Shown here in pieces: positions 1-15,079 of a DNA stretch of 64,000 nucleotides. Each line of letters opens with the position of its first letter. Positions within the stretch are counted from its first letter, which is position 1. A program made the translations under genes and the position numbers. The DNA is from an uncultured delta proteobacterium (lineage in GTDB: Bacteria; Desulfobacterota; Binatia; JACPRU01), in assembly GCA_963745025.1 (NCBI GenBank), contig CAVUWD010000005.1, positions 96,001 through 160,000 on the forward strand, given 5' to 3'. The notes under the pieces were generated by a model. The model was not told where the DNA came from. It made no database searches and worked only from the letters and a program-made list of their open reading frames with translations.

Positions 1-158
1 TTTCCGCTCTCGGCTGAGAGCGCCGTGCGCCGAACCGCACGTCGCCCTCCGTTTCACTTGCCGATACCCAGCCGAGCCGGCGGTGCCCGAGGTCGTTCGC
101 CGGCGGCGTCTGCCGCGGCGGCGGACCGCGAAATAGGCCGGAGAGCCGCGTCAACGCG

Positions 159-3100
159 CTACGCACCATCGACTGCGGGCGCTGACACCTCTCCTTCCCA
201 GTCCACGTCTTCGAGCAGGTACGCGAGCATCCGCGGATCGTCGTTGTCGGGTAGCTCTCGCTTCGGGATCAGCCACCGCGATGCGCGGATGTGGGCGTCG
301 ATCACGGATGCCGCTTCCGACACCGGAACGCGAATCTCGAACTCTCCCGGCCCGAAGCGGAATTCGCCGGCGGCGCGACCGTCGACGCAGACCTTGAGGG
401 TCTGCGGGCTGAGCGACGGGTAACATTCGGGAACCCTGACTCGCAGCCGCAAGCCGTGCCCGCGCCGGGGCAAGACGAGGTGCAGGTTCGGCGAGGCCCA
501 GCGGTCGGAATACCACTGAGCCGCCGAATCCGCCTTGCAGTACCTGGGGATAAACGTTTCGTAGCCGCGCGTCTGGACGAACGCGTCGAAGTACTCGGGA
601 TCGTGGCGCTGATGCGGCACCCCCGCCCGCAACTCGCCCGCCTGGGTCGCGTCGAAGAACCGGCGCAGCACGGCCTCGGTCTCTTCGACGCTGGCGTCGC
701 CGCTGCCGCGGAACGAATTCTCCCCGTGTATCCGATGGAAGTAGAGACGATCCGGGACGAACGTCGGGCTGGTGTATCGCAGGGCCGTCAGCAGGAAATC
801 CCAATCGTAGCACAGGCGCAGATCGCGGAAGCCGCCGACCAGGTCGAACAGCTCGCGGCGGAAGAACAGGTTTCCCGTGGACAGCGCGACGTTGAAATCG
901 AGCAGTGCATATTCGAGCCGCGGATATCGCAGGGCTTCATCGACTTTCGCCCGTAGACGATCCGCGTAGGGATCGCCTGGCGAGATCGCCGAGCCTTCCG
1001 CATCCACCAGATCCACCCCCGAGAACGACAGCGAGGAATCCGATCCGTCGAGCGCTCGGTGAAGCCGCGCGAGCCGCTCGGGATGATAAGAATCGTCCGA
1101 GTTCAGCACCGCGATGAAATCGCCCGCCGCGCTCTCCACGGCGCGATTGAGCGCCGCGGCGGGCCCCGCGTTGTGCTGCGCGACGATCTCCACCGGCAGC
1201 TTCGGGTTGCGCTCCGCAAACGACTTCGACAGCGCGAGAGTCGCATCGCTCGACCCGTCGTCGACGACCACGATCTCGAAATCGGACCACGTCTGGCGCA
1301 GCACCGATTCGAGCGCAAAGGAGACGTACGCCGCGTGATTGTAGGCCGGCACGACGACGGAGATCGCAGGGCGCGGCTTCCCGTACCGCCGCGACCGCGC
1401 CGTCACCTTGCGCAATGCCGCGGCGGTCGCGTTCAGGTACGCATAGCCGTAGCGCTTGTCCGGCTCGAGATGCGCTCCCTCGGCCCATTCGTTCCACGAG
1501 TTGACGAACACCAGCCGCCGGCTCGGCGGCTGATGCGCGACGGCGTCCTCGCATGCGCTCTGCAGCCATTGCTGATAGAGCCGCGGGCTGGCGCCCACGT
1601 ACACGTTGCCCAGTGCGCCGCGCCGCGGCGTGTTGTCCCAACCCGGCATGACGGCGCGGAACAACGGATACGCTTCTGGCCTCGATTGCATCTTGTCGAG
1701 CACGACGTCTTCGTAGTGGTACGCCGATCCCTCGTATCGCGGGTTCAGCAGCGCGAGCGAACCCGAGACCTGGCTCGCGCTCGTGCCGTGCGGCGGGAAC
1801 TCCACGGCGGCGTCGAATCCGAGCGGCACGGGGTCTTTCAGGCCGAAGGTCTGCGCGGCGACCAGGAACAGATCCCCGATGCCCGACTGGCGGCAATGAT
1901 GCCGCCAGCGCTCCACGGTGTCGCGCGGCTCGGGCAAGATGTCCGCTCGATAGACGACGAGCAGCGGCCTGCCCTCCACGCGGATGTAGCGCGGATCGCG
2001 GAAGATCGCCTCCACGTCGCGGATGAACGCGAAGTCGCTCTCGGGCGAATGCTCCTGGCCGAGCAGCAACTCCTGCTCCGCGCCGTCCCACCGTCGCGTC
2101 CAGTTCTCGTTCGCCCAGCAGATGCAGAACGGGCGATCGAGCCGCGGATTGTCGAGGAGCTGGCGCAGCGGGCGGTCGAGAAGCTTTCTGCCGTTGAACC
2201 AATAATAGTGATAACAGAACGCGTACACGCCGTAGTGCGTGGCGAGCTCCAACTGGCGGGCCTGGATCTCCTCACCGACCCGCAGATCGTAGAAGCCGAG
2301 CTCGCCCGGCAAGTGAGGCTGATAGTGGCCGACGAACTGCGGCTTCGCGCGCGTGACGTTGGTCCACTCAGTGAATCCCTTTCCCCACCATTCGTTGTTC
2401 TCGGGGATGGGATGAAACTGCGGCAGATAGAACGCGATCAGGCGCACCGTCGTCTCGCCGACCGCCGTCGCGGAGATGGGTTGATAGTCGGCGGAGGCTT
2501 CGGCGTAGAGCTCGCGCACCAGGTCCGCGTCGAGCAGATCGCGATCCGCATGGGCTGCGCCGGTGGCGGACCGGGGACGAGACGCTTCGCGGACAGCGGT
2601 CGACGGCTGCGGATCCGAGCGCGCTTGCGGCGGCGGGCCCAGCGCTTCCGAGATCGGCGCCGCAGCGGAGCCGGGGTCCGGCGTGGAGGGCGCGCCTCCG
2701 TTGCGGTCGAGGAACTTCGCCGCCGATCCCTTGAGGGCGCCGTAGAGAGCGCGGAGCGCGCTGCCCTCTGGGGCGACCCGGTCGAGGCGGCGTCGCAAGG
2801 ACTCGAGCGCCTGCCACCCCGCGGTGCCGCGGAACACGGACAGCTGCTCGTCGAGCCGAGCAACGATCCGTCCCCGCTCCTCGGCGCGCTCGATCTCCTC
2901 TTCGAGGCGGCGCGCCAGCTCGAGCCGCTCTCGCTCCGTCTCGTCGAGCCGGCGCTCGAGGATCCGCTGCCTGGTGTCGAGCATCGTGCGGACCTGCGTC
3001 AGCTCCCATCGCGCCCTCGCAGCGTCTCGCGCAGATTCACCAAGCCGCATCTCGAGCATTCGCCGCTTGTTGTCGCGGTTCGACCGCAGCTGCTCGACCT

Positions 3101-3938
3101 GGCGCCCGGGGTCGGCGAGCTCCAGCGCGCGCTCGCCGAGCCGTCGCTCGAGCTGCGAGACGTGCCCCTGATACCGCGCTGCGAGCAGCGATTCGGCGCG
3201 GCTCGCGCTGGGCAGCGCGGCGACGACGAAGAACTGATACGTGGTCGCCAGCGGGTCGCTTCGCAGCTCGGCCACCAGTTGCTCGGGGTATTTCGTGAGG
3301 TCGAGGCGCGTCTCGGTCTGATCGATGCCGCGCACGATGCGCGTCTGGCTTTGGATGGAGTACCCGGCGTCGCGGAACAAGCTCTGCACCGCCGTTTCGT
3401 CGAAGAAGCGGATGTGATCGCGGTCGAGAAGCCCGGTGTCCGTGTAGCGAAATGCGCCGGACAGAAGCGCGAGCCGCACCGCCCCGTGGGCGACGTTCGG
3501 GATCGACGCGAGGAGCCGCGCCTGCGGCGCCAGCACCGCCGCCAGCCGTCGCAGCACCTCGCCCGGATTGCGCAGATGCTCGAGGACGTCCAACGCCAGG
3601 ACGACGTCGAACCGTTCCGGGAAAGCCGCCGCGAAATCGAACGACTCGAGATCGGCGACGACGACCCTCTGGCAATGCGGCCGTGCGACGTCCGCGGCGG
3701 CCGGGTCGGCGTCCACCCCCCACACCGAGCAGCCCCGCGCCGCGAGAGCCGACGCGACGACGCCCGGCCCGCAGCCGACGTCCAGCACCTTGCTGCCGAC
3801 CGGGACGCTCAGCACGGCCAGGGTATGCGCGTTGTTGAGGTCGTTCAGGTTCAGCGGGACGAGGTATCGCAGCGCCGAAGCCTTGTCCGCACTGCCCGTC
3901 TGCTCGGCGCGCCGTTTTCGTACAACCGCTGGTTTCAA
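159..3938 (-). CDS. Multidomain glycan biosynthesis protein: class I SAM methyltransferase + coiled coil + WbsX/GH99-like domain + GT2 glycosyltransferase + C-terminal beta domain
   Basis: VLDVGCGPG SAM motif and DVLEHL; E/R/L-rich heptads about aa 255-400; IAFYLPQFHPIPENNEWWGKGFTEW...FVNSWNEWAEG (WbsX); ISVVVPAYNH...VVDDGSSD...LNSDD (GT2). TTG start uncertain. Confidence 0.9.
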   Translation of the reverse strand: MKPAVVRKRRAEQTGSADKASALRYLVPLNLNDLNNAHTLAVLSVPVGSKVLDVGCGPGVVASALAARGCSVWGVDADPAAADVARPHCQRVVVADLESFDFAAAFPERFDVVLALDVLEHLRNPGEVLRRLAAVLAPQARLLASIPNVAHGAVRLALLSGAFRYTDTGLLDRDHIRFFDETAVQSLFRDAGYSIQSQTRIVRGIDQTETRLDLTKYPEQLVAELRSDPLATTYQFFVVAALPSASRAESLLAARYQGHVSQLERRLGERALELADPGRQVEQLRSNRDNKRRMLEMRLGESARDAARARWELTQVRTMLDTRQRILERRLDETERERLELARRLEEEIERAEERGRIVARLDEQLSVFRGTAGWQALESLRRRLDRVAPEGSALRALYGALKGSAAKFLDRNGGAPSTPDPGSAAAPISEALGPPPQARSDPQPSTAVREASRPRSATGAAHADRDLLDADLVRELYAEASADYQPISATAVGETTVRLIAFYLPQFHPIPENNEWWGKGFTEWTNVTRAKPQFVGHYQPHLPGELGFYDLRVGEEIQARQLELATHYGVYAFCYHYYWFNGRKLLDRPLRQLLDNPRLDRPFCICWANENWTRRWDGAEQELLLGQEHSPESDFAFIRDVEAIFRDPRYIRVEGRPLLVVYRADILPEPRDTVERWRHHCRQSGIGDLFLVAAQTFGLKDPVPLGFDAAVEFPPHGTSASQVSGSLALLNPRYEGSAYHYEDVVLDKMQSRPEAYPLFRAVMPGWDNTPRRGALGNVYVGASPRLYQQWLQSACEDAVAHQPPSRRLVFVNSWNEWAEGAHLEPDKRYGYAYLNATAAALRKVTARSRRYGKPRPAISVVVPAYNHAAYVSFALESVLRQTWSDFEIVVVDDGSSDATLALSKSFAERNPKLPVEIVAQHNAGPAAALNRAVESAAGDFIAVLNSDDSYHPERLARLHRALDGSDSSLSFSGVDLVDAEGSAISPGDPYADRLRAKVDEALRYPRLEYALLDFNVALSTGNLFFRRELFDLVGGFRDLRLCYDWDFLLTALRYTSPTFVPDRLYFHRIHGENSFRGSGDASVEETEAVLRRFFDATQAGELRAGVPHQRHDPEYFDAFVQTRGYETFIPRYCKADSAAQWYSDRWASPNLHLVLPRRGHGLRLRVRVPECYPSLSPQTLKVCVDGRAAGEFRFGPGEFEIRVPVSEAASVIDAHIRASRWLIPKRELPDNDDPRMLAYLLEDVDWEGEVSAPAVDGA

Positions 3939-4130
3939 TACCGATGGCTCCGGCCGAGGATGCGACGAAACGTTGCCATCTTCCCGCGCTCCTGTAAAGG
4001 GCGCCCGTCGGTGCGCTGCGAGGGCGCGCGACTCAGGAAGCGATGAACAAGCGGCGGTTCTCCGCTTCCCGGTTGAGGACGAGGGCAGTGCGCCTCTGCG
4101 ACTCGCAGCGCGCGAGCAAGCTCGACCACA

Positions 4131-4259
4131 CTAGAGCTCCCGGTGGCCGAGCCGGCGGACGCGAAGGCAGAAGGCGACGTCTTCGTCGCCGTTGAAGTAG
4201 AGCGGGTCGAATCCACCGCAGCGCTCGAAGATCTCGCTCTTCGTCAGCAGGCATGCCCA
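4131..4259 (-). pseudogene. GT2 glycosyltransferase internal fragment (about 42 aa)
   Basis: Manual translation: ACLLTKSEIFERCGGFDPLYFNGDEDVAFCLRVRRLGHREL*, the GACLL..GGFD..ED.D.CLR segment of GT2 enzymes; no start or rest of gene. Confidence 0.65.
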
Positions 4260-4295
4260 CGTTTCATCCTTCAGGGTGCGTATGCGAATCCAAAC

Positions 4296-4560
4296 TCAGA
4301 AGTCGATGGCCAATCCGATGAGCGGGCCCCGGAACTGGAGGTCGATATTTGCCGCGCCCTTCGACTTGTTGAAGTCGAGCAGGCGGTAACCCGCCGCCAG
4401 GTGGAGGGTGGTGTTCTTGGGCTTCCAGGGGCAGCTCTACTGGAAGGCCGAACTATATCCCAGCAGAAGTCGGATCCCGTCTGGAAGGGAGCCGCGTCGC
4501 CGCGGAAGGACCAATCGGCCTTGTCGAAGAGGTTCAAGGTGATGCGCCCGCCGTGGATGG
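4296..4560 (-). pseudogene. C-terminal fragment of an outer-membrane beta-barrel protein (frameshift and internal stop)
   Basis: GGRITLNLFDKADWSFRGDAAPFQTGSDFCWDIV / AFQ*SCPWKPKNTTLHLAAGYRLLDFNKSKGAANIDLQFRGPLIGLAIDF*; amphipathic strands and a terminal Phe. Confidence 0.55.
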
Positions 4561-4827
4561 CCGTTTCAAAGCCCCTCTCCCTTGGGGCTATCGTCGCAGC
4601 GCGGGCCTCGATGGCAACGGCTCGCGACGTTGCAGCGACAACGGCTCGCCGACTCGCTCGCGCGGAATCTCGAACGACTCGGATTGAAGCGCCGACCGAA
4701 GCAGCTTCCGACGTTGCCGTCGTCGGAGACCCGCGGTCGTAACGTCGCCTGCGTCAGGTGCTTGCGGGTACGGCGGCCGTAAAAGCGACGAGTTTCCTGT
4801 CTTAAGCGGCACTGGTACAATTGCCCC

Positions 4828-7524
4828 ATGACGCGTCGCGACGGTTGCGAGGTGCTGAGCTTCCGGGCGCGAGGGCTCTACCCGAACCTGCGGTGCATGC
4901 TCGCCAGCCTGTCCGAGCAGAGTCGACGGCGCCCCGCAGACGGTAAGTTGCCCGGCGACGTGGCGTCCGTGGTCGAGTGCACGGTTCGTGAGGATGGCCG
5001 CACGCGGAGCATCGAGCTGCCCGTAGGCGCTGCCGACCTGCTCGCGTTGCGCCACTCCGATCAGCCCGCCGCGCTTCACCACCTCTCCCTCATCCTCCGT
5101 GCCCAAAAGGGGGACGAGGCCAGCCGGAATGAGCTCCAAAGCATTGCCCAGAAGCGGTTTCGCAAGCTGCAGGATCGCCTCGACCGCCTCGAGCAGTTGG
5201 ATGACCGGTATCTGATCTTATCCAGCGACCAGCAGCAGTACCCCTCCGAAACGGCGAGCCACAAAGGGTCGATGCTGCTCCGGCTCAGCCAGCAGGGGTA
5301 TCCGGTTCCGGATTTCGTCATCCTCACCGCCGATGCCTATCCAGAGAGCGAGCAGCGCCTGAAGCAGCACGTCACCCGCGCCGTCGAAGCGCTCGAAGGC
5401 CTAGTCGGGCGTCGGCTCGGAGCACCGACGGAGCCCCTTGTGCTCGCCATGCGCTGCGCAATGCCTCAGTACTACCCAGGCTTGATGCCGACCTACCTCA
5501 ACGTGGGCATCACGGAGAGGACGCTGCCTGGCCTGGAGAGCCTTTTTGGCCGTCGTGCGTCCAATATGATGTACCTGAATAACCTCAAGAACCTTCTCGT
5601 CGCCTTGGGCGAGGAGACAGGCACGGTCCTCCGCAAAGCGGACGAGACGCCACCTGAGGACGCGGAGGAGTTCCTCGTCCGGCGCGTCGAAGAGGCATCG
5701 GCGAGGGTGCGCAAGCACGATCCCCGATTGCTTCAGGACGGATTCCATCAGGTTGCCTTCCTCGCTTTGGAGGCCTACCGCAACTTCGAGAGCAACGCCG
5801 ATCTCGTGGCCACCCTTTCGCGCGGCACGATCCAACGCCCGGCGATCATCATGCAAATGATGGTCTGCTCGGTCAGGGAAGAGAGGTCCTATGTGGGTGT
5901 GCTTTACAGCCGCAACCCGATGACCGGCTCAGGGTGCGAGATCGAGACCGCGATGGGGACCTTCGGGGAAGACATCATGACGGGGTCGGTGGAGACGACG
6001 CGGACCGACTTCGATGGTCCCGAGGAGATCCGCGAGGCTTTCCCTTCCGTGTTCAGCTTCATGCCCCTCGTACCCAAGCTGGAGCAGGAGTTTCAGTTCC
6101 CGGTCACCATCGAGTTTGCGGCCGAGGCCGGCGCCTACACCGAGCTCTTCGCGCTCCTCCAGCTCAACCAGACCGGCATGACCGGCCGCGCTGCCTTCAT
6201 CTCGGCAGTGGATCTTCACAAGGCCGGTACCATCTCCCGGAAGCGCATCCTCGAGCTGATCCAGCCGTACCACGTCAAGCAGATCGAGTCCGACACCATC
6301 GATACCCGCTCCTTCCAGGATCTCTACCGCTTCGGCGACGGCATCTCGATTCTCCCTCGCGCCGCCATCTGTGCCCGCGTTTACTTCTCTGCCGAGGAAG
6401 CCCTGAACGCCAAGCGGCGGGGCGAGAGCGTCTGTTTCTGCAAGCCGACATTCGCGCCCACCGACACCGTCGTCATGCAGGAGGTCGACGCCATCCTCAG
6501 CCTGAGCGCCGCCGCCATCCACGTGGTCACGATCTGCCAGAGCTTCGGCACCCCGGCCCTCTTGAACCTGGAGCGGGATGGCATCGCGTTGAAGCCCGAG
6601 CGATGCCTTGTCAACGCCGACGGGGTGGAGATCCACGAGGGAGACTTCGTGACCATCTCGTCGCGCCGGCAGGCGTTATTCAAAGGCAAGGCTCGGTTCG
6701 AGCCCGCCCGCTTCATCCGCTACCTGCAGGGCGAGGAGCCTGAGCTTACCGAGGCGGAGCGGAAGGCCTTCGAGGACATGGCCTATGCCTACCGCTACTA
6801 TTTCAAGCTCGTCAGTACACTCAGGCAGGAGCAGGTGACGAGCTTGTGGGAGCTCATCCGCCTGGTCAACCTCGAACTCCGCGGCAAAGAGGAGGAAGCC
6901 CGACAGTTCGTGCGGGCGTGGTGCGATAGTCACGAGCAGTTCTACGTCGACGAGGTGCTGCGCAGCGAGCTCGGCGATCACCTCAATCAGCACAGAGTGT
7001 TCGAGATGCTGACCGTGGATCAGAAGATCCGCTTCTTCGCCAAAGCTCTGGATCGTTGCGAGCGCGAGAAGATGTTCGGCTACGCCGCCGGCGCCTTCAT
7101 GCTTGGACGGTTCATCTCGACTCCCCTGCCGGTTGCCTTCTGGCGCTCATTCGGGCCAAGCAAGACCGCTCTCCTGCTGAACGAGTGGCTGCTTTTCGAG
7201 AAGTACATGCACGTGCTGCACAGCGTGGGCGAGCGGAAAATCAACCGCGCCCGGAAGCGCATCCTCAGCGAAGGGCTGCCCGAGATCCAGTTGGCACCGC
7301 CGGCGTTGACGGTGCTTGTCCCTTTGAAGCTGGCGGCAGCCGACATCACGTCTGTTCGCAAGTCGGTTCCCCAGTGGTGCGACCCGCAGCTCCCCAAGCT
7401 CCTGGACCTTCTCGAGAGGCCCTACAAGGCGTTCTTCGACTTCAAGGCGCCCTGGTCGCGCGGTAAGCTGGAGGCCATCTGCGACGAGGCCGGCCTCAAG
7501 ATGCCCGGCCCAGACGACCGGTAG
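4828..7524 (+). CDS. Divergent pyruvate,phosphate dikinase-like protein (ATP-grasp + phospho-His swivel domain, novel C-terminal domain)
   Basis: SHKGSMLLRLSQQGYPVPDFVILT, PLVLAMRCAMPQYYPGLMPTYLNVG, GVLYSRNPMTG, GEDIMTG and AILSLSAAAIHVVTICQSFGTP align to PPDK N-terminal and central domains; PEP/pyruvate barrel motifs absent. Confidence 0.85.
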   Translation: MTRRDGCEVLSFRARGLYPNLRCMLASLSEQSRRRPADGKLPGDVASVVECTVREDGRTRSIELPVGAADLLALRHSDQPAALHHLSLILRAQKGDEASRNELQSIAQKRFRKLQDRLDRLEQLDDRYLILSSDQQQYPSETASHKGSMLLRLSQQGYPVPDFVILTADAYPESEQRLKQHVTRAVEALEGLVGRRLGAPTEPLVLAMRCAMPQYYPGLMPTYLNVGITERTLPGLESLFGRRASNMMYLNNLKNLLVALGEETGTVLRKADETPPEDAEEFLVRRVEEASARVRKHDPRLLQDGFHQVAFLALEAYRNFESNADLVATLSRGTIQRPAIIMQMMVCSVREERSYVGVLYSRNPMTGSGCEIETAMGTFGEDIMTGSVETTRTDFDGPEEIREAFPSVFSFMPLVPKLEQEFQFPVTIEFAAEAGAYTELFALLQLNQTGMTGRAAFISAVDLHKAGTISRKRILELIQPYHVKQIESDTIDTRSFQDLYRFGDGISILPRAAICARVYFSAEEALNAKRRGESVCFCKPTFAPTDTVVMQEVDAILSLSAAAIHVVTICQSFGTPALLNLERDGIALKPERCLVNADGVEIHEGDFVTISSRRQALFKGKARFEPARFIRYLQGEEPELTEAERKAFEDMAYAYRYYFKLVSTLRQEQVTSLWELIRLVNLELRGKEEEARQFVRAWCDSHEQFYVDEVLRSELGDHLNQHRVFEMLTVDQKIRFFAKALDRCEREKMFGYAAGAFMLGRFISTPLPVAFWRSFGPSKTALLLNEWLLFEKYMHVLHSVGERKINRARKRILSEGLPEIQLAPPALTVLVPLKLAAADITSVRKSVPQWCDPQLPKLLDLLERPYKAFFDFKAPWSRGKLEAICDEAGLKMPGPDDR

Positions 7525-7533
7525 GTCGCGACG

Positions 7534-9972
7534 TCAGCTGTTGCGTGAGGACTGCTCGGGAGCGGCCTGATCATTGCCGCCGTACAGGAACCCGCGGTCC
7601 ACCTTGGGCTCCAGCTCGCCGAGTACGTCAGGGAGCTCCCCGCCTCCCCGTGCCGCCAACAGCCGGCCCATGGCGAGGGAGACGGAGAGAACCGCATTCA
7701 TTCCCAGGTTCGCCTTGCGCTGCATGACGGCGATCCGCTCCGCCACGGGCGCGTCGCGCGCGATCTTGCCGCGCTTGACTGCCAGATCCAGCTCCAACTC
7801 GAGAAGCTGACGATCGATGTGGACAAGGCTCTTGAACTCCGAGATGCGCTTTCCCATGAAGCGCGGTGCAATGACCTCCTCGACATTGGCCACGGCGTTG
7901 AGACAGCCCTTGCCGTCGTAACGCTTCGCCCTCATCCACAGCCCCGCCAGCTCGTCGTCGTTCTTCGCCGATATCGACTCCGCCCGGAGCCCGTCCCGGA
8001 AGTGGTAGACCTTCTCGGCCTCGTCATAGCGGAAGAGTTCGGGGTACTTCCGCGTGATGGGGCCGGCCTCGATCATGCTGTCGACGAGGTGGATGGCCTC
8101 GTCGGTTCCCGCCGAGGTCCCGAGGGGCGTCGCCGCCGTGAACTTGGTGCCGTTGTCGAGCCGGACGACTACCCCGACGGTAGGAATCCCCGCGTTGGTG
8201 GGCTCCTCATGGGCGCTGATGTCGCTGATGATGAGGTCGCCAGGCAGCCCCCGCGATGAGCGCACACCCTTCTCGGCCATGTGGATCAACTCCACGATGC
8301 GACCGTACTTGATGAGCCGCTCGGTGTTGCTGCCGCCTCCGCACTTGAGCCCGAGCGCGCCCACCGCGAAGGCGATGTCGGCTTCCATGACCTCGTTGGG
8401 CGATTTGGATCGATGGGAGACTACAAGCGCGAGGCCGTGCTCCTTGGCGGCGCGGGTGGCCAGCAGCGTCTCGCTGAGCGTGCCGATCTGGTTCGCCTTG
8501 ATGAGGGCGGTGTTGATGAGCCCCTCTTCGGCAGCGTGGATTATGGACGTGTCCTTGGTGGTGACGAGGTCGTCGCCGATGATCAGGATCTCATCGTCCA
8601 GCTCGGCCATGAGGCGCTTCCAGCCCTCGGGGTCGTCCTCGGAGAAGGCATCCTCCAAGGAGACGATGGGGTACTCGCGTATCCATCGCTTGTAAAGGTC
8701 CAGGAGTTCGTCGGTCGTCATCACCCGGGGATCCTCGGCGCGCCAGAAGAGGTACTTCCCGATGGACTCCTTCTCTCCGGTCTCCTCGCGGTAGGCCAGG
8801 CTGAGCTCACTGGCGGCCGGGTCGAGCGCCAGGCAGACATCGCGGTCGGGAACGAAGCCACACTCCTCGATGGCCTGCACCGCCACTTTGAGGGCGCGCT
8901 CCTCGGGGATGAGATCGCCCACACGGCGGGCGTAGGATGCGACGACGCCTCCTTCAAGACCGACGCCCACGAAGTTGAGCCCTTCCGAGTCCTGGATGAT
9001 CTGAATGACCCGGCTCTGGAGCGCGTTGGTCACGCGCTGGGCCTCGATGTAGTCCCTGGCTGTGAGGGGGATGAACATCAGCTCCTGGAAGCTGAGGTTG
9101 CCGCCCATGTCCTCCGTGTGTCTCCCGCCCATGATGGAGTTCCTGAACTCCCATGGCGCGAATACGAGCCTGCCATCGGGCAGCTCGACCTCCTGGAGGC
9201 GGTGGATCTGGAGCTTGCGCTTGATGCGCACAGACAGGGCGGTGTCGCGCAGCGTCTCCGAATCACCTCCGCTCTTCGCGGCTATCTCATGCACGGCCTT
9301 GGCCTTGCGGGCTGCCTCTCCCTGTCGCTCGCGAAACGCCCTGTACTTGCCTGGATCCGCAAGCAGGAAGTCGAACAACGCCACCGCGCCTACGGTGAAG
9401 AGCAGGCGTCCCCCAACTACCATGGGTTCGATATTCCCCATGCGGCCGAAGGCCATGAGGGCGACACCGGAGGGGAAAGCGGCCAACGCCAGCCACTTGC
9501 TGGCGTTGGGGCCGGCGGCCGAGACGGCGAGGTTCTGGGCTTTTACGGCCGGATGGTAGCTGCCAGCCTCCTTGGTGACTCCCATGGCGGCGCCCCAGGG
9601 TATCTTGAGGAACAGCTCGAGATAGAAGAGCCACCTGGCCCAGAACCCCTCCGCCATCCTGGCTTGGGCCGGGCCCAGGAACTCGGGGCGGAGGTTGTTG
9701 GTGCGCACGGCCGCGAGGTAGTGACCCATCTCATGGAGCGCAATGTTGGCATGCCAGGCCGCGTACCAGATGGCGGCTGAGATGACCACCTCAATGCTGA
9801 AGAACATCTGCCGGGCGACATCCGCCCGCGAGCTGATCGACTCCGAGATGCTCAGTAGAGAGGTGAGAAATGCCGCGTGAAAGGAGACCAGCTTGTGGTT
9901 GGCGATGACCCAACCCCGGTCCAGCCGCGGCCAGCCCCCTTCCTCATGGCTCTGAGAAGCAAACAAGTTCAC
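7534..9972 (-). CDS. M50/S2P-like membrane domain fused to a circularly permuted enolase
   Basis: N-terminus has TM helices, HEMGH and SAAGP; barrel motifs LALDPAASE, YPIVSLEDA, GDDL, LIKANQIGTLSET, SHRS; enolase N-terminal capping domain (GIPTV, PLGTSAGTDEA, YDGKGCLNAV, LGMNAVLSVSLA) lies at the C-terminus. Confidence 0.9.
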   Translation of the reverse strand: MNLFASQSHEEGGWPRLDRGWVIANHKLVSFHAAFLTSLLSISESISSRADVARQMFFSIEVVISAAIWYAAWHANIALHEMGHYLAAVRTNNLRPEFLGPAQARMAEGFWARWLFYLELFLKIPWGAAMGVTKEAGSYHPAVKAQNLAVSAAGPNASKWLALAAFPSGVALMAFGRMGNIEPMVVGGRLLFTVGAVALFDFLLADPGKYRAFRERQGEAARKAKAVHEIAAKSGGDSETLRDTALSVRIKRKLQIHRLQEVELPDGRLVFAPWEFRNSIMGGRHTEDMGGNLSFQELMFIPLTARDYIEAQRVTNALQSRVIQIIQDSEGLNFVGVGLEGGVVASYARRVGDLIPEERALKVAVQAIEECGFVPDRDVCLALDPAASELSLAYREETGEKESIGKYLFWRAEDPRVMTTDELLDLYKRWIREYPIVSLEDAFSEDDPEGWKRLMAELDDEILIIGDDLVTTKDTSIIHAAEEGLINTALIKANQIGTLSETLLATRAAKEHGLALVVSHRSKSPNEVMEADIAFAVGALGLKCGGGSNTERLIKYGRIVELIHMAEKGVRSSRGLPGDLIISDISAHEEPTNAGIPTVGVVVRLDNGTKFTAATPLGTSAGTDEAIHLVDSMIEAGPITRKYPELFRYDEAEKVYHFRDGLRAESISAKNDDELAGLWMRAKRYDGKGCLNAVANVEEVIAPRFMGKRISEFKSLVHIDRQLLELELDLAVKRGKIARDAPVAERIAVMQRKANLGMNAVLSVSLAMGRLLAARGGGELPDVLGELEPKVDRGFLYGGNDQAAPEQSSRNS

Positions 9973-10157
9973 CGGCGCAGCAAGGTCGTCAGGTCAGACG
10001 CCGGGGAGCCTAGCAGAAGCGAACGAGGTGCGTCAAAATAGCCCCCGTGCGACTGTTTGCGTTCTGGATCCAGCCCGGCGTCATCGCTCAACTGATGCAG
10101 TCGGGAGATTCGTAGCAAATACCAAATATCACAGCGCAGAGCCGGCTTTGCTTATCT

Positions 10158-10310
10158 GCGGCAAGTGGAATTGTCCCGGAGGTGGTGCGTGTGCTCACCG
10201 CGCTGCAACCACTGCAGGTGTCGCCGGAGACGCCCGTGTTCACCAATACCACCGGAGATCCGATCGAGCCGAAGGCGTTCTCGCGGCACTGGTACGACTG
10301 CTTGCGGGGG
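10158..10310 (+). pseudogene. Tyrosine integrase internal remnant
   Basis: RQVEL/PEVVRVLTALQPLQVSPETPVFTNTTGDPIEPKAFSRHWYDCLR resembles the segment before the HxxR box of phage integrases; one frameshift, truncated both sides. Recognised from memory, not by search. Confidence 0.5.
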
Positions 10311-10458
10311 GATAGATCCTTTCTCCCCATCATCCCCATCATCCCGAGCCGGTTGACGAGCGCCTCATGCACCCCGTAAAAGCGGGCGTTACGTGGGGGA
10401 GATGGGATTGGGTGAGCGTCTGCCAACGCAGGTTCTGTAGCTTTCGGCCCCTCTAGCC

Positions 10459-11505
10459 ATGCATGAGCGCCAGCGCGCAACGATGAACGCCGCAGCGGCG
10501 ATCACCCTCGTGGTCGTCGGATCGTCAGCCTGTGCGGTGCCGTCCGGCGGGGGTCGCGGCGGGCCCCCGGCGGCCACCGCCGTCGTCGCCACCATTCCGC
10601 TCAGCAACTACGGTACCGACGTGGCGGTGCGTCCCGACGGCACGCGCGCCTACGTGCCGCTTCAGACCGGCAGTGTCCTCGCCCTCGACCTAACCAGCAG
10701 GCAGGTCGCCAGTACGATCACGACGGACGGGCGACCTTCCGCGATCGCCCTCACCAGCGACGGCGCGCACGCCTACGTGACGGACTTGACCGCTCAGTCC
10801 CTCTTCGTGCTCGACACGACCAACGACAGCCTGGCCAAGAGCATATCGATCGGAACGATCGCGCGGCCGACCCGGACGCCGGCGGTGGCGGTCAGCCGTG
10901 ACGGCCGGTGGGCATATGTTACCAACGCCACGGTCATGGACGACCATCTCCTCGTCATCGACACCGCGACCAACACCGTCGTAGGCAACCATTCCCTGGA
11001 CGTCCATCCCGTGGGAATCGCGGTGAGCCCGGACGGACGGCGCCTGTACGTCGCCGGGTGCAAGTTGTCGTGCGTCGACGGCGCCCTGCTCGTCCTCGAC
11101 GCGGCGAGCGCCAACGTCGTCTCCAGTATCCCTCTGCAGGCGGCTCCCGCCGGCTTCGTCCTGGCCCCCGACGGCTCTCGTGCGTACGCCTCGACCGGGC
11201 TTTCGGGAACGGTTCTGGCCATCGATCTCACCACCGGCACCGTCACGACGATCCCCGTCGACGCCGAGCCTCTCGGCGTTGCCATCGACCCGCGCGGCGT
11301 CTTCGTTTACGTGACCTGCTACGGCGCGAGCGACGTAGCCGTCATTGACACCCGCACGAACACGGTGGTCTCGACGGTCCCCGTGGCCAATGAACCGCGG
11401 GCGATCGCCGTGAGCCCCGATGGCCGGCTTGCCTACGTGACGCACTCTTCACCGACCTGTTCGGTGATCGACCTGCAGCGCGTCACGGGAGGCCCCGGCA
11501 CGTGA
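10459..11505 (+). CDS. YVTN/YncE-family beta-propeller lipoprotein
   Basis: Repeated P.GIAVSPDG..AYVT / VIDT.TNTVV units; signal peptide ending GSSAC. Confidence 0.85.
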   Translation: MHERQRATMNAAAAITLVVVGSSACAVPSGGGRGGPPAATAVVATIPLSNYGTDVAVRPDGTRAYVPLQTGSVLALDLTSRQVASTITTDGRPSAIALTSDGAHAYVTDLTAQSLFVLDTTNDSLAKSISIGTIARPTRTPAVAVSRDGRWAYVTNATVMDDHLLVIDTATNTVVGNHSLDVHPVGIAVSPDGRRLYVAGCKLSCVDGALLVLDAASANVVSSIPLQAAPAGFVLAPDGSRAYASTGLSGTVLAIDLTTGTVTTIPVDAEPLGVAIDPRGVFVYVTCYGASDVAVIDTRTNTVVSTVPVANEPRAIAVSPDGRLAYVTHSSPTCSVIDLQRVTGGPGT

Positions 11506-11631
11506 CGGGCGGCGCGTCGCCCGAGTGACGGTCCCCCCCGTCCTCGGACCGTCGGCGTACGTATGGACGCGTCGTGCGCCGGAAACGGTTTATCTGAATT
11601 GCCCGATCCACGGAGGCTCTGAGGTGTGGCC

Positions 11632-12378
11632 ATGACTTGTGCTTCGTGCGGCGTGAGAAACGTCGATTTCGCTTCCACGTGCTTCTCATGCCGACAGCCG
11701 CTCGGGAAGCTCTCGGCGGTCACCGCTTCCGCTGCCCCACGTGAAGCCCTCGAGGCGCGGAAATCGGCGCCCCCCGGCATGACCCGCAGCGGCGCGGATG
11801 CGCCGCGCGTGCCGCGCGGCGCCATCATGCCCCTGCTGCTCGTGGCCGCGGTCGCTTGGGTCGTTGCGCGCGGTCTTCCGCTGCGCATGAGGTCGGTTTC
11901 GCCTCATTCGGCCGACGCGCCCGCGGAGCCAGCGAAGGAGGTTCGCTCGCTCCCGCTCACCGAGCCCGCTCCGCGGGAGCCCGCGGCTCCCCTGCCCGAG
12001 GAGCAGAACGGCTTCCGGCTCAGCCACTTCGAGTGGGGCGTTCCCGCTGCGGGACCGGGCAGTAGCTTCCGCACCGGCGAGACGGTGAGCGGCCGCAGCG
12101 AGATTCAAGGCTTCGGTGTGACCGCGGACGGCAAGATCGACGTGAGCGTCGCGTTCGCGTTCCGCGATTCCATGGGCAAGCTCGTAGAGCCGATCTCGCC
12201 GACGGTGCTCCGCCAGCCCATGGAGTCGGAGACGCTGTTCACGAGCTTCGACTACGCGATCCCGGTCGACGGGCCTACGGGTAAGTACGACCTCGAGATG
12301 GCGGTCGACGACGCCGTGAGCACCCGCTCGGCGCACTTTCACCGTAAGATCACCGTCGAAGCGGCGAAACCTCAATAG
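11632..12378 (+). CDS. Zinc-ribbon + single TM + extracytoplasmic Ig-like domain protein
   Basis: CASCG...CFSC at the N-terminus, hydrophobic segment LLLVAAVAWVV, C-terminal P.G.Y.L...V.D beta-sandwich pattern. Confidence 0.65.
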   Translation: MTCASCGVRNVDFASTCFSCRQPLGKLSAVTASAAPREALEARKSAPPGMTRSGADAPRVPRGAIMPLLLVAAVAWVVARGLPLRMRSVSPHSADAPAEPAKEVRSLPLTEPAPREPAAPLPEEQNGFRLSHFEWGVPAAGPGSSFRTGETVSGRSEIQGFGVTADGKIDVSVAFAFRDSMGKLVEPISPTVLRQPMESETLFTSFDYAIPVDGPTGKYDLEMAVDDAVSTRSAHFHRKITVEAAKPQ

Positions 12379-12575
12379 CCGTAAAAACGGACGTTCCGAG
12401 GCATCACAAAACGGCCAAAACGGCGGCGGTCCAACGGGTCGCCTCTTGGCGTCTTGTCCGGTCTGCCTACTCGGTAGGACCGGTCTACCTGCCTGTGATA
12501 ACAACGTCGTCGCTAGCCCGAGTGCGGCGGCGCAGCGCGCAGTCGACAAAACCAAATCAAGAGGAAGGATCTCAT

Positions 12576-15079
12576 ATGAACGCAGTCAAGCAGGTCGTCG
12601 CGATAGCGCTTTCAGGTGTCGCGTTTGCGCTTCCTTCCTCATCCTGCATCGCGCAGCAAGTTACCGGTGAGTTGGGTTCGCCCAGCGCCACCACCACGAT
12701 CAGCGGAAAACAACTTCCGCCGCCCGATCCGAAGTTCGGCGGGGTGATCAAGGAGAAGGCCTCGGAGTCGAAGGCGTGGTGGCCGCCGCGCGTCGTGCCG
12801 CCGAAGGGCGCGCCCAACGTGCTGCTCATCATGACGGACGATGCCGGGTTCGGCGCGCCGAGCACGTTCGGCGGCGTCGTCCCGACCCCGGCCTTGGATC
12901 GCATCGCGAACAACGGGCTGCGGTACACGCAGTTTCACTCCACGTCGCTGTGCTCACCGACGCGGGCGGCGTTGATCACCGGACGCAACCATCACGTGGC
13001 CGGCTTTGGGGTCGTGGGCGAAGCGGCGACGGGGTTCCCGGGTTACGACTCGATCATCAGGAAGGATACCGGCACGATCGGCACGATCCTGAAGGAGAAC
13101 GGGTACGCGACCTCGTGGTTCGGCAAGGACCACAACACGCCCTTCTACCTGGCGAGCCAGGCCGGGCCGTTCGATCAATGGCCCATCGGGATGGGCTTCG
13201 AGTATTTCTACGGGTTCGTCGGCGGCGACACCAGCCAGTGGCAACCGAACCTGTTCCGCAACACGACCGCCATCTATCCCTTCCAGGGGAATCCCGGCTG
13301 GAATCTGACCACGGCGATGGCCGATGACGCGATCCAGTACATGAAGCAGCTCAAGGAGATCGCGCCCGACAAACCGTTCTTTGTCTATTACGTACCGGGC
13401 GGCACACACGCGCCGCATCATCCGACGCCGGAGTGGATCAAGAAGATCAGCGACATGCACCTGTTCGACGGCGGCTGGAACAAACTGCGCGAGACCATCT
13501 TCGCCAACCAGAAACGGCTCGGCATCATGCCCGCCGATGCCAAGCTGACGCCGTGGCCGAAGGATCTGCCGGAGTGGGATTCGCTCAGTTGGGACGAGAA
13601 GAAGCTCTTCATCAAGCAAGCCGACGTCTACGGGGCGTACCTCGCGTACACCGACCACGAGATCGGCCGGGTGATCCAGGCCGTCGAAGACCTGGGCGAA
13701 CTCGACAACACGCTTGATCATCTACATCAGCGGCGACAACGGCGCGAGCGCCGAAGGCATGCTCAACGGGACACCGAACGAGTTCACCACCTTCAATGGT
13801 GTTCCCGTGCCGGTCAAGGATCAGTTTCTCTGGTACGAGTTCTGGGGATCGGAACGGACCTTTCCGCACTTTGCGGCGGGCTGGGCGTGGGCGATGGACA
13901 CGCCGTTCAAGTGGACCAAGCAGGTGGCGTCGCATTTCGGCGGGACGGCCCAGGGCGTTGGCCATGTCCTGGCCCGGCCACATCAAGGACGTGGGCGGCA
14001 TCCGCAACCAGTTCCACCACGTCATCGATATCGTGCCGACGATCCTCGAAGCGACCGGCGTCTCTGCGCCCGAAACGATCGACGGCATCAGGCAGCGCCC
14101 GATCGAAGGCGTGAGCATGGCGTACACGTGGGACAAGGCGAACGCCAACGCGCCCACCAAACACACCACGCAGTACTTCGAGATGCTCGGCAATCGCGCC
14201 ATCTATCACGACGGTTGGGTGGCGGCGACGACCCCGGTGACCATCCCGTGGGAACTGAACACCGCCACGCCTCCGGACGTGATCACCGGCTACAAGTGGG
14301 AGCTCTACAACATCAAAGAGGACGTCACCGAGGCCAACGATCTCGCGGCCAAGATGCCGGACAAGCTCAAGCAAATGCAGGACGTCTTCTACGCCGAGGC
14401 GAAGAAGTACGACGTGCTGCCGCTCGACAACTCGACGCTCGCGCGCTTCCTCACGCCTCGTCCGAGCGCAACTGCGGGACGGAAGGTCTTCACGTATTCG
14501 GGCGAATTGACCGGCGTGCCGGCCAGCGCCGCCCCGAACATCCTGGACAAGTCCTACACCATCACCGCCGAGGTCGAGATTCCCGAGGGCGGCGCGGAAG
14601 GCATGATCGTCACCGAGGGCGGTCGCTTCGGCGGCTACGGCCTGTTCCTGAGCAAGGGCGAGTTCGGAATCGGCCGCGGCAAGGTGGTGTTTCTCTACAA
14701 CCTGCTCGATCTCAAGCGGACGGCCTGGGAAGGGCCGGAGCTGAGCGCCGGCAAGCACACCATCGTGTTCGACTTCAAGTTCGACGGCCCCGGTCTCGGC
14801 AAGGGCGGCACGGGCGTGCTGTCCGTGGACGGCAAGGAAGTGGCCAAGAACTCCATGGAGCACACCACCCCCATCATGTTCCCCGAAGACGAAGACTTCG
14901 ACGTCGGGCAAGACACGCGCACCCCGTTGGCGCTCATCGAGTATCGCTACGATTGTCCGTTCAAGTTCACGGGCAAGATCGACAAGCTGACCTTCGACCT
15001 CGGCCCGGCGCAGTACACGGAAGCGGAGCGCAAGCAACTTCCGGTCATTGCCGACCGGGTCGCCCGCGCGAAGGACTGA
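12576..15079 (+). CDS. Secreted arylsulfatase (formylglycine type), split by two frameshifts (about 13715 and 13958)
   Basis: PNVLLIMTDD, CSPTRAALITGR, GKDH; continues in ORFs 13714 (ISGDNGAS) and 13796 (QFHHVIDIVPT, WELY); RBS GAGGAAGG before ATG 12576. Confidence 0.85.

Follow-up and report, generated by a model that had tools for sequence, protein, structure and literature searches.

What is a membrane domain with the zinc signature of a site-2 protease (S2P) doing in front of an enolase? The question is raised by a single gene in a window of 64,000 nucleotides (positions 96,001 to 160,000 of contig CAVUWD010000005.1, forward strand; NCBI GenBank assembly GCA_963745025.1) from an uncultured delta proteobacterium (GTDB lineage Bacteria; Desulfobacterota; Binatia; JACPRU01). 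A preliminary description made from the DNA letters proposed that the product, hereafter the fusion protein, joins an S2P-like membrane domain of the M50 family to an enolase, which would serve as metabolite sensor of a possibly active intramembrane protease or be anchored by it. The analysis reported here points, with a probability of roughly 55%, to an S2P-type domain that binds zinc and keeps an active enolase tethered to the membrane, and the membrane domain probably remains a hydrolase coupled to that enolase. The evidence includes the composition of the enolase part, the restriction of the membrane domain to such enolases, and the conservation of a putative metal site within a fold distantly resembling M50 proteases.

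Results

The enolase part is permuted and predicted to be catalytically complete

Enolase is among the most conserved enzymes known. In the fusion protein, Pfam assigned Peptidase_M50 to residues (aa) 77–239, Enolase_C to aa 273–561 and Enolase_N, in its best stretch, to aa 682–774; after the membrane domain only Enolase_C and Enolase_N were returned, with no C-terminal CBS domain. Compared with canonical enolase (EC 4.2.1.11; PF03952 and PF00113), the fusion protein thus has both domains and every catalytic and metal-binding motif, but they are presented in reverse, barrel then cap, with an insertion in the cap at about aa 632–680 and a predicted membrane tether. The same order was evident from blastp against the canonical enolase of this genome, in which aa 273–573 aligned with residues 183–459 (35% identity) and aa 681–774 with residues 95–164. 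Because of the permuted domain order, the enolase profile TIGR01060 scored only 240.1 bits, in three pieces and below its cut-off of 300. A profile built from the alignment of full-length rows and run against the PDB gave output dominated by enolases, and the PDB profile alignment takes in the PxGxSxG loop of the cap.

Residues E297, E340, D384, E440, D467/D468, K492, H520-R521-S522, K543 and S620 were invariant in 28 full-length family members and align with the corresponding motifs both in the canonical enolase of this genome and in enolases from the PDB. The motifs concerned are QEFM, DEGG, LDxAASE, SxED, GDD, KxNQIGT, SHRS, the Lys of the last strand and the Ser of the cap loop, all of which we take to have catalytic or metal-binding roles. 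Judged by its sequence, the enolase is circularly permuted and catalytically complete.

A census of ten other carrier genomes (G238–G247) found the fusion to be the only Enolase_C match in four (G238, G239, G240 and G247; a provisional count from assemblies of unstated completeness); if these assemblies are complete, enolase activity has to come from the fusion there. A canonical enolase is also present in G241 and G243–G246, and a fragment of one in G242; in the genome studied here a canonical enolase (411.7 bits) is encoded on another contig. In a Stahlbacteria metagenome-assembled genome (MAG), the fusion gene is directly followed downstream by one for a canonical enolase (L019:9928–11283, plus strand; Enolase_N and Enolase_C, 373.8 bits). 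Invariance of the catalytic residues in 28 members and the four carriers with no other Enolase_C match make the role of mere metabolite sensor, suggested for the enolase in the preliminary description, unlikely.

The membrane domain was found only ahead of permuted enolases

A word-indexed search with aa 1–265 returned at least 662 homologues, nearly all of about 800 residues and with Enolase_C and Enolase_N, and those with names came mostly from Terriglobales MAGs. When 1.84 billion cluster representatives were scanned with HMMER, 121 matches were obtained at E ≤ 0.001, and no ordinary M50 protease was found among the checked matches of those 121. Pfam analysis of 32 long N-domain matches placed Enolase_C directly after the membrane domain in 30; Enolase_N was also present in 26 of these 30 and always stood behind the barrel. 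The remaining two long matches comprised one protein without any family and one unrelated inverse autotransporter. With Enolase_C in 30/32 and permutation in 26/26, the membrane domain is exclusive to the fusion: as far as the searches reach, it occurs only ahead of permuted enolases.

Among GTDB species genomes, 26 loci (L007–L032) bear the membrane domain, and these represent at least 9 phyla. The locus records name Acidobacteriota, Elusimicrobia, Planctomycetota, Aminicenantes, Stahlbacteria, Leptospirales, Verrucomicrobiota, Gammaproteobacteria/Lysobacterales and Cloacimonadota.

Predicted fold and topology of the membrane domain

The membrane domain and linker (aa 1–265) were modelled with AlphaFold2 on a 30-sequence alignment (pLDDT 86.9, pTM 0.80). 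The model contains four long helices (Table 1), where the preliminary description had counted three or four hydrophobic ones; the second encloses the HExxH motif. Two shorter helices (aa 96–106 and 110–126) precede a beta-hairpin, and two charged helices (aa 207–233 and 238–257) form the linker to the enolase. Kyte-Doolittle peaks at the four long helices were 1.33–1.79 in the fusion protein and 1.7–2.6 at the same positions in homologues, as compared to 1.63–1.73 in one canonical small M50 protein of the same genome; a further, weaker peak lies near residue 125 of the fusion protein. The range 9340–9972 given for the domain in the preliminary description stops before the end of the unit: the membrane domain itself closes at D206 (nt 9355), and the linker to the enolase continues to about nt 9202.

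Lys and Arg residues number 7 in segment 89–147 and 14 in 205–265, against 2 in 42–58 and none in 179–184, a distribution consistent with a topology in which both termini are cytoplasmic. This topology would bring HExxH, AAGP and D201/D206 close to the cytoplasmic face and leave the enolase in the cytoplasm. SpoIVFB and MjS2P have a re-entrant beta loop at the place equivalent to the hairpin (PMC11486902). By analogy, the hairpin of the fusion protein may likewise dip into the membrane.

Probable distant relationship to M50 proteases

PF02163 was the sole Pfam family matched in the N-domain (E 6.4e-6, profile positions 10–106 of 221). In a six-frame search of the genome, the open reading frame (ORF) scored 28.3 bits, above the cut-off of 27.2. 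Among 28 full-length relatives of the fusion protein, 22 gave a PF02163 match at E ≤ 0.01, the lowest value being 4.1e-6, and precomputed Pfam annotation lists this family for 34 of 120 listed homologues. Profile-to-profile alignment (hhalign) of the N-domain with 30 canonical small M50 proteins of the same class gave P 0.0083, pairing HExxH with HEvaH, then the hairpin region, then AAGP with AAAGPxxN, in order. The genome studied here encodes three canonical M50 genes (220.9, 80.2 and 40.5 bits), and when the N-domain hidden Markov model (HMM) was run over its 38,597 six-frame ORFs the fusion protein itself came first and two of these three genes were ranked 8 and 9, at non-significant E values.

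On the structural side, all Z scores were below 8. VIA-align of the model with 48,161 PDB representative chains placed KkRseP of Kangiella (7w6z_A) at rank 2 (Z 7.1, rmsd 4.7, 125 aligned residues), MjS2P (3b4r_B) at rank 3 (Z 6.8, rmsd 3.2, 103 aligned) and AaRseP of Aquifex at rank 18 (Z 5.2). Applied to the Foldseek top 1000 (996 chains), the same program ranked 3b4r_A first (Z 6.8, rmsd 6.3, 126 aligned), the alignment spanning model residues 55–225 and chain residues 31–165. In an ESM Atlas feature search, M50 clusters made up 18 of 30 matches, with scores of 0.90–0.91. A phmmer search of the N-domain against PDB sequences returned chance matches only, to K2P channels and designed repeats. 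As several independent methods agree, the N-domain is very probably a distant homologue of the M50/S2P fold, and the relationship proposed in the preliminary description stands in this form.

Conservation of the putative zinc site

The three signature segments named in the preliminary description were recovered in the ORF translation where it had placed them: HEMGH, VSAAGP (aa 150–155) and LFDFLLADPG (aa 199–208). Conservation was counted over 250 aligned domain rows from 242 proteins, with P0001 and the identical P0002 both counted and many rows being close relatives at 60–70% identity. In covered rows, H80 was retained in 203/207, E81 in 200/206 and H84 in 201/205; P155 of AAGP in 176/177; R189 in 169/172; D201 in 168/171; and D206 as Asp in 169/171, the other two having Glu. 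In the hairpin, P125 was found in 183/185 rows and both G127 and G131 in 185/185. The zinc-site residues are thereby retained in 97–99% of about 170–207 homologous domains.

The preliminary description had named HExxH conservation beforehand as a test of its proposal, and in a divergent set of 30 sequences reaching 23–45% identity the motif was present in 28. An HExxH within a transmembrane helix, an AGP motif that aligns with the canonical one and an invariant distal Asp in a non-canonical motif were also recovered, in agreement with that description. The whole HExxH motif is lost in P0187, while P0173 and P0194 have HMxxH, having lost the catalytic Glu and retained both His and D206. Each of the latter two proteins carries two M50-like copies (P0173, aa 34–274 and 864–988; P0194, aa 60–301 and 879–1015), the first with HMxxH and D206 and the second degenerate.

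The residue favoured as third zinc ligand is D206. It is supported by the helix break after helix 4, by the Pro-Gly that follows it as Gly-Gly follows the canonical Asp, and by the 3b4r_A alignment. The MjS2P residues H54, E55, H58, N140, P143 and D148 were taken from the 3b4r sequence, and counting inward from the ends of the 3b4r_A alignment (an extrapolation, with no residue alignment) puts H54 at about model residue 78 and D148 at about 208, within two residues of H80 and D206.

Four further polar residues outside the M50 signature are conserved to a similar degree: H26 (214/220 rows), H32 (219/223), E61 and H74, the last two also near-invariant. Lying on helices 1 and 2, these residues could make up a polar path or a further metal site.

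A dikinase-like partner adjoins the fusion gene

The convergent neighbour of the fusion gene encodes a protein related to pyruvate, phosphate dikinase (PPDK; TIGR01828), with which it scored 119 bits (cut-off 843) over profile positions 15–514 of 865. It shares the ATP-grasp domain and the swivelling phosphohistidine domain with PPDK, including the invariant His, but differs in that a helical domain of about 270 residues replaces the phosphoenolpyruvate (PEP)/pyruvate TIM barrel. No PEP-utilizers_C domain was found in it by Pfam at E ≤ 1, the last 270 or so residues being helical and without a family, and ESM Atlas gave no score ≥ 0.9 for this C-terminal part. At least 355 homologues of about 890 residues were found, and H565 is invariant in them; from alignment with the PPDK motif we take this residue to be the swivel histidine.

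The dikinase gene adjoins the fusion gene in L009–L013, and two tandem-fused copies occur in L022. Two MAGs have the pair under consecutive locus tags (ABIJ96_16455/16460 and VEV41_19735/19740), and in other phyla the dikinase is fused to the enolase protein itself (P0132, P0167, L030 and L031). The dikinase is a conserved partner in Acidobacteriota. In five Planctomycetota-type carrier genomes, a profile search did not find the barrel-less dikinase and gave only weak matches to ORFs of about 910–950 residues; those in G238 and G240 proved to be canonical PPDKs (878 and 952 bits) and were set aside. This absence marks the dikinase as a lineage-specific partner, outside the core of the system.

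Locus L026 has an ORF of about 2,450 residues (L026:178–7530, plus strand), the frame of which reaches both ends of the fetched contig. A Glu/Leu/Phe/Val dehydrogenase domain (aa 674–1103; glutamate dehydrogenase) stands there ahead of the M50-like domain and the permuted enolase, and the C-terminal part has weak similarity to the dikinase.

The dikinase/fusion pair appears to lie in a variable region, since the stretch at window positions 1–10300 has no counterpart in a genome of the same genus (G019, 82% complete), in which the fusion gene was not found. That genome has counterparts of window positions 10442–11519 and 12754–14801, and the genes to the right of position 10300 are present in it at 74–89% identity on different contigs. 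Estimated contamination of the assembly is 7.6%.

Other genes and elements near the fusion gene

In Planctomycetota-type loci, the gene directly downstream on the same strand encodes a protein of about 150 residues that belongs to no Pfam family and has one hydrophobic helix near either terminus (Table 1). As a lead only, this protein is a candidate for a substrate of the protease-like domain, or for an inhibitor of it in the manner of BofA; the analogy is with the transmembrane segment of BofA, which occupies the SpoIVFB active site (PMC9042235). Four Planctomycetota/Verrucomicrobiota loci have genes for a CDP-alcohol phosphatidyltransferase and a phosphatidylserine decarboxylase within 6 kb of the fusion, upstream of it in three loci and downstream in one.

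To the right of the fusion gene, window positions 11626–12378 (plus strand) encode a 250-residue product that has CxxC...CxxC near its N terminus and a single hydrophobic segment, and to which Pfam assigns no family. Judged by its topology, this product would be a suitable substrate for an S2P-type protease, but it is not conserved beside the fusion in other loci. A sulfatase-like gene at 12495–15079 (plus strand) seems by eye to be split into overlapping frames (12495–14114 and 13796–15079), which may be a frameshift or an assembly error; the same-genus genome matches 12754–14801 unbroken. Upstream of the fusion gene, at about 10327–10405, lies a dispersed intergenic repeat of some 60–70 bp with 80–93% identity among copies. 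Five further copies occur in this genome and several in that of the same genus; one copy stands immediately upstream of a gene for a short-chain dehydrogenase. No Rfam match was found in 9900–10520 and no Pfam match for the repeat. An integrase remnant once considered for the 480-bp region upstream of the fusion gene was rejected, no Pfam match being present there.

Table 1. Coordinates and main attributes of the fusion gene, its parts and neighbouring genes. Positions are those of the window unless a locus is named.
Feature	Position	Strand	Remarks
Whole fusion gene	7534..9972	-	single ORF, GTG start, 812 aa; M50-like membrane domain, linker, circularly permuted enolase
M50/S2P-like membrane domain	9355..9927	-	aa 16-206; four predicted transmembrane helices and re-entrant hairpin; Pfam, AlphaFold2, VIA-align, hhalign, ESM Atlas
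Helix 1	9850..9927	-	aa 16-41; bears near-invariant H26 and H32; AlphaFold2 model and alignment
Helix 2	9703..9795	-	aa 60-90; bears E61, H74 and HExxH; AlphaFold2 model and alignment
HEMGH	9721..9735	-	aa 80-84; H80 and H84 proposed zinc ligands, E81 proposed catalytic glutamate
H26, H32, E61, H74	9895..9897, 9877..9879, 9790..9792, 9751..9753	-	outside the M50 signature
IPWGAAMGVTKEAGSYHP beta-hairpin, candidate membrane re-entrant loop	9550..9603	-	aa 124-141; strands 132-135 and 138-141 (AlphaFold2)
Helix 3	9439..9531	-	aa 148-178; opens with AAGP (aa 152-155, nt 9508-9519)
Helix 4	9361..9429	-	aa 182-204; bears G188, R189 and D201; highest hydropathy peak (1.79)
D206 in LADPG, best candidate for third zinc ligand	9355..9357	-	helix break after helix 4 (AlphaFold2) and conservation
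Interdomain linker	9202..9354	-	aa 207-257; two charged helices (AlphaFold2)
Enolase TIM barrel, placed first	8254..9156	-	aa 273-573; Enolase_C E 2.9e-54, blastp
Enolase N-terminal capping domain, placed last, with insertion	7618..8235	-	aa 580-785; Enolase_N E 9.8e-15, blastp
Convergent PPDK-like dikinase gene, 898 aa	4828..7524	+	ATP-grasp and swivel-His, no PEP/pyruvate barrel, helical C-terminal part
Two-helix protein of about 150 aa	L020:12640-13185, L021:12694-13182, L028:12808-13293, L029:12748-13275	+	no Pfam family
Two-helix protein of about 150 aa, weak match	L023:12670-12987		
Phosphatidyltransferase/decarboxylase pair	L020:4665-6476, L021:7184-9115, L023:12906-14442, L028:7823-9480		L020 by Pfam, others by blastp clustering

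Discussion

Comparison with known site-2 proteases

The closest architectural parallel is with the CBS-type S2Ps, exemplified by SpoIVFB of Bacillus subtilis and MjS2P of Methanocaldococcus jannaschii (PDB 3B4R; MEROPS M50). SpoIVFB has an antiparallel-strand loop in front of HEXXH, zinc ligands H43, H47 and D137 and a cytosolic CBS domain (PMC11486902). The fusion protein resembles these enzymes in having HExxH in a transmembrane helix followed by an antiparallel beta loop, a putative Asp ligand (D206) at the cytoplasmic end of a later helix, and a C-terminal cytosolic domain joined through a helical interdomain linker. It differs in having four transmembrane helices rather than six, in the additional helices (aa 96–126) before the hairpin, in LADPG where those S2Ps have NxxPxxxxDG, and in a cytosolic domain which is a 550-residue permuted enolase and not a CBS domain. 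With the PDZ-containing RseP-type S2Ps (Escherichia coli, Kangiella and Aquifex; PDB 7W6X–7W6Z and 9J83) it shares the core order of HExxH helix, re-entrant beta loop, AGP helix and Asp helix. Unlike them, it has no periplasmic PDZ domain, the loop at that place consisting of 3 residues (aa 179–181), no fourth C-terminal helix and no anti-sigma context.

A proposed membrane-held enolase with a probably retained hydrolytic site

The following arrangement would accommodate these observations. The N-terminal 260 or so residues would form a very divergent M50 fold, in which helix 1 is followed by helix 2 with HExxH near its cytoplasmic end, by a hairpin that re-enters the membrane from the cytoplasmic side, by helix 3 with AAGP, and by helix 4 ending at D206. 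The two-helix linker would then lead to the permuted enolase in the cytoplasm, in the place of the CBS domain of SpoIVFB-type enzymes. So arranged, the domain would bind zinc and keep an active enolase on the inner side of the membrane, probably as a dimer, and intramembrane hydrolysis would be coupled to the enolase in one direction or the other. In Acidobacteriota and in the genome studied here, the fusion protein would work with the adjacent dikinase, as suggested by synteny and fusions. Since the metal ligands are conserved together with the catalytic Glu and the hairpin that would bind substrate, the site is most likely still an intramembrane hydrolase.

Several observations weigh against this reading. 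Regarding the fold, each measure of similarity to M50 is weak alone, and sequence similarity is at the detection limit: on the called protein PF02163 scored 26.1 bits, under the gathering cut-off of 27.2; the matches of the N-domain HMM to canonical M50 genes had E values of 19–20; VIA-align Z scores below 8 are common among helical bundles; and Foldseek against the PDB gave no match at E ≤ 0.001, the best being at 0.25 and the list consisting mostly of GPCRs. Hydropathy of the fusion protein is modest, with peaks below 1.6 in three of the four helices. Regarding the site, the N and P of the NxxP third-ligand motif are absent, and hhalign on the last helices was not significant (P 0.1) and used a register that sets canonical DGGR on VVGGR and the canonical Asp on V186. 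The loss of Glu in P0173 and P0194 further indicates that hydrolysis is dispensable in at least some lineages. Regarding context, no sigma/anti-sigma pair was conserved near the fusion gene in the compared loci, and no candidate substrate gene was conserved across the family and its phyla. The family is also rare and patchy: of the genomes sampled, 2 out of 201 in the phylum carry it, and 1 out of 8 in the order.

Some of these points would be explained if the domain were a pure anchor or scaffold, derived from an S2P but non-cleaving, whose metal site is structural and which serves only to tether and dimerize the enolase at the membrane and to dock the dikinase there. In favour of an anchor, the phyla share no conserved substrate gene, the membrane domain is found only with enolase, P0173 and P0194 lost the catalytic Glu and kept the ligands, and the sole conserved partner in Acidobacteriota is a metabolic enzyme. 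An anchor, however, needs neither a catalytic Glu nor a substrate-binding strand, yet E81 is kept in 200/206 rows and P125, G127 and G131 in 183–185 of 185. Moreover, the N-domain is conserved nearly as well as the enolase, with identities of 31–45% and 40–58%, respectively, in the same distant members. For these reasons the anchor is considered rather unlikely, and a domain that still hydrolyzes is preferred.

A more speculative and distinctly improbable extension is that the membrane domain, enolase and dikinase together form one membrane-coupled machine for handling PEP, in which the permuted barrel stands in for the lost PEP/pyruvate barrel of the dikinase. Docking of the swivelling phosphohistidine domain would in that event take place on the enolase barrel, from which the permutation would have cleared the cap. 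The membrane domain would then do more than anchor: its zinc site, together with H26, H32, E61 and H74, would be a gated hydrolytic site or an ion path, linking the reaction to a membrane-embedded substrate or to an ion gradient.

It is very unlikely that the protein is an S2P signalling protease whose enolase acts mainly as a ligand sensor for 2-phosphoglycerate (2-PG) or PEP, as CBS domains sense nucleotides, and is no working glycolytic enzyme. The enolase does sit exactly at the position that the CBS domain takes up in SpoIVFB (PMC11486902). A canonical enolase is kept in this genome and in G243–G246, where a paralogue would be free to specialize; but the acid/base residues are as invariant as the binding residues, and the fusion is the sole Enolase_C match in four of the ten other carriers. 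Just as improbable is a non-M50 helical bundle with a convergent HExxH, such as a metal-ion or proton path lined by H26, H32, E61, H74, H80, H84, D201 and D206, for although all M50 similarity scores are marginal, four near-invariant polar residues of helices 1 and 2 lie outside the M50 signature and the NxxP motif is absent, the four signature elements (HExxH helix, hairpin, AGP helix and Asp at a helix end) occur in canonical order and topology, and Pfam, hhalign, structure alignment and language-model features each put M50 first or near-first.

Significance of the fusion

To our knowledge, site-2 proteases occur with PDZ or CBS accessory domains and none with a whole enzyme of central metabolism. 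As judged from titles and abstracts, the literature searched contained no description of a site-2 protease fused to enolase, with or without PPDK, and no report of a natural circularly permuted or integral-membrane enolase, most subscription journals being outside this coverage so that absence from print is unproven. The fusion design is widespread and undescribed in the searched literature. A family of this size, with predictions this concrete, lends itself to direct tests. An inactive zinc site would make the fusion a clear example of a protease fold put to new use as a dedicated anchor; with an active one, intramembrane proteolysis would be directly coupled to the 2-PG/PEP node of glycolysis. 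The fusion protein is seemingly the sole enolase in some assemblies of Planctomycetota and Verrucomicrobiota, and in those organisms central metabolism would run via a membrane-bound enzyme.

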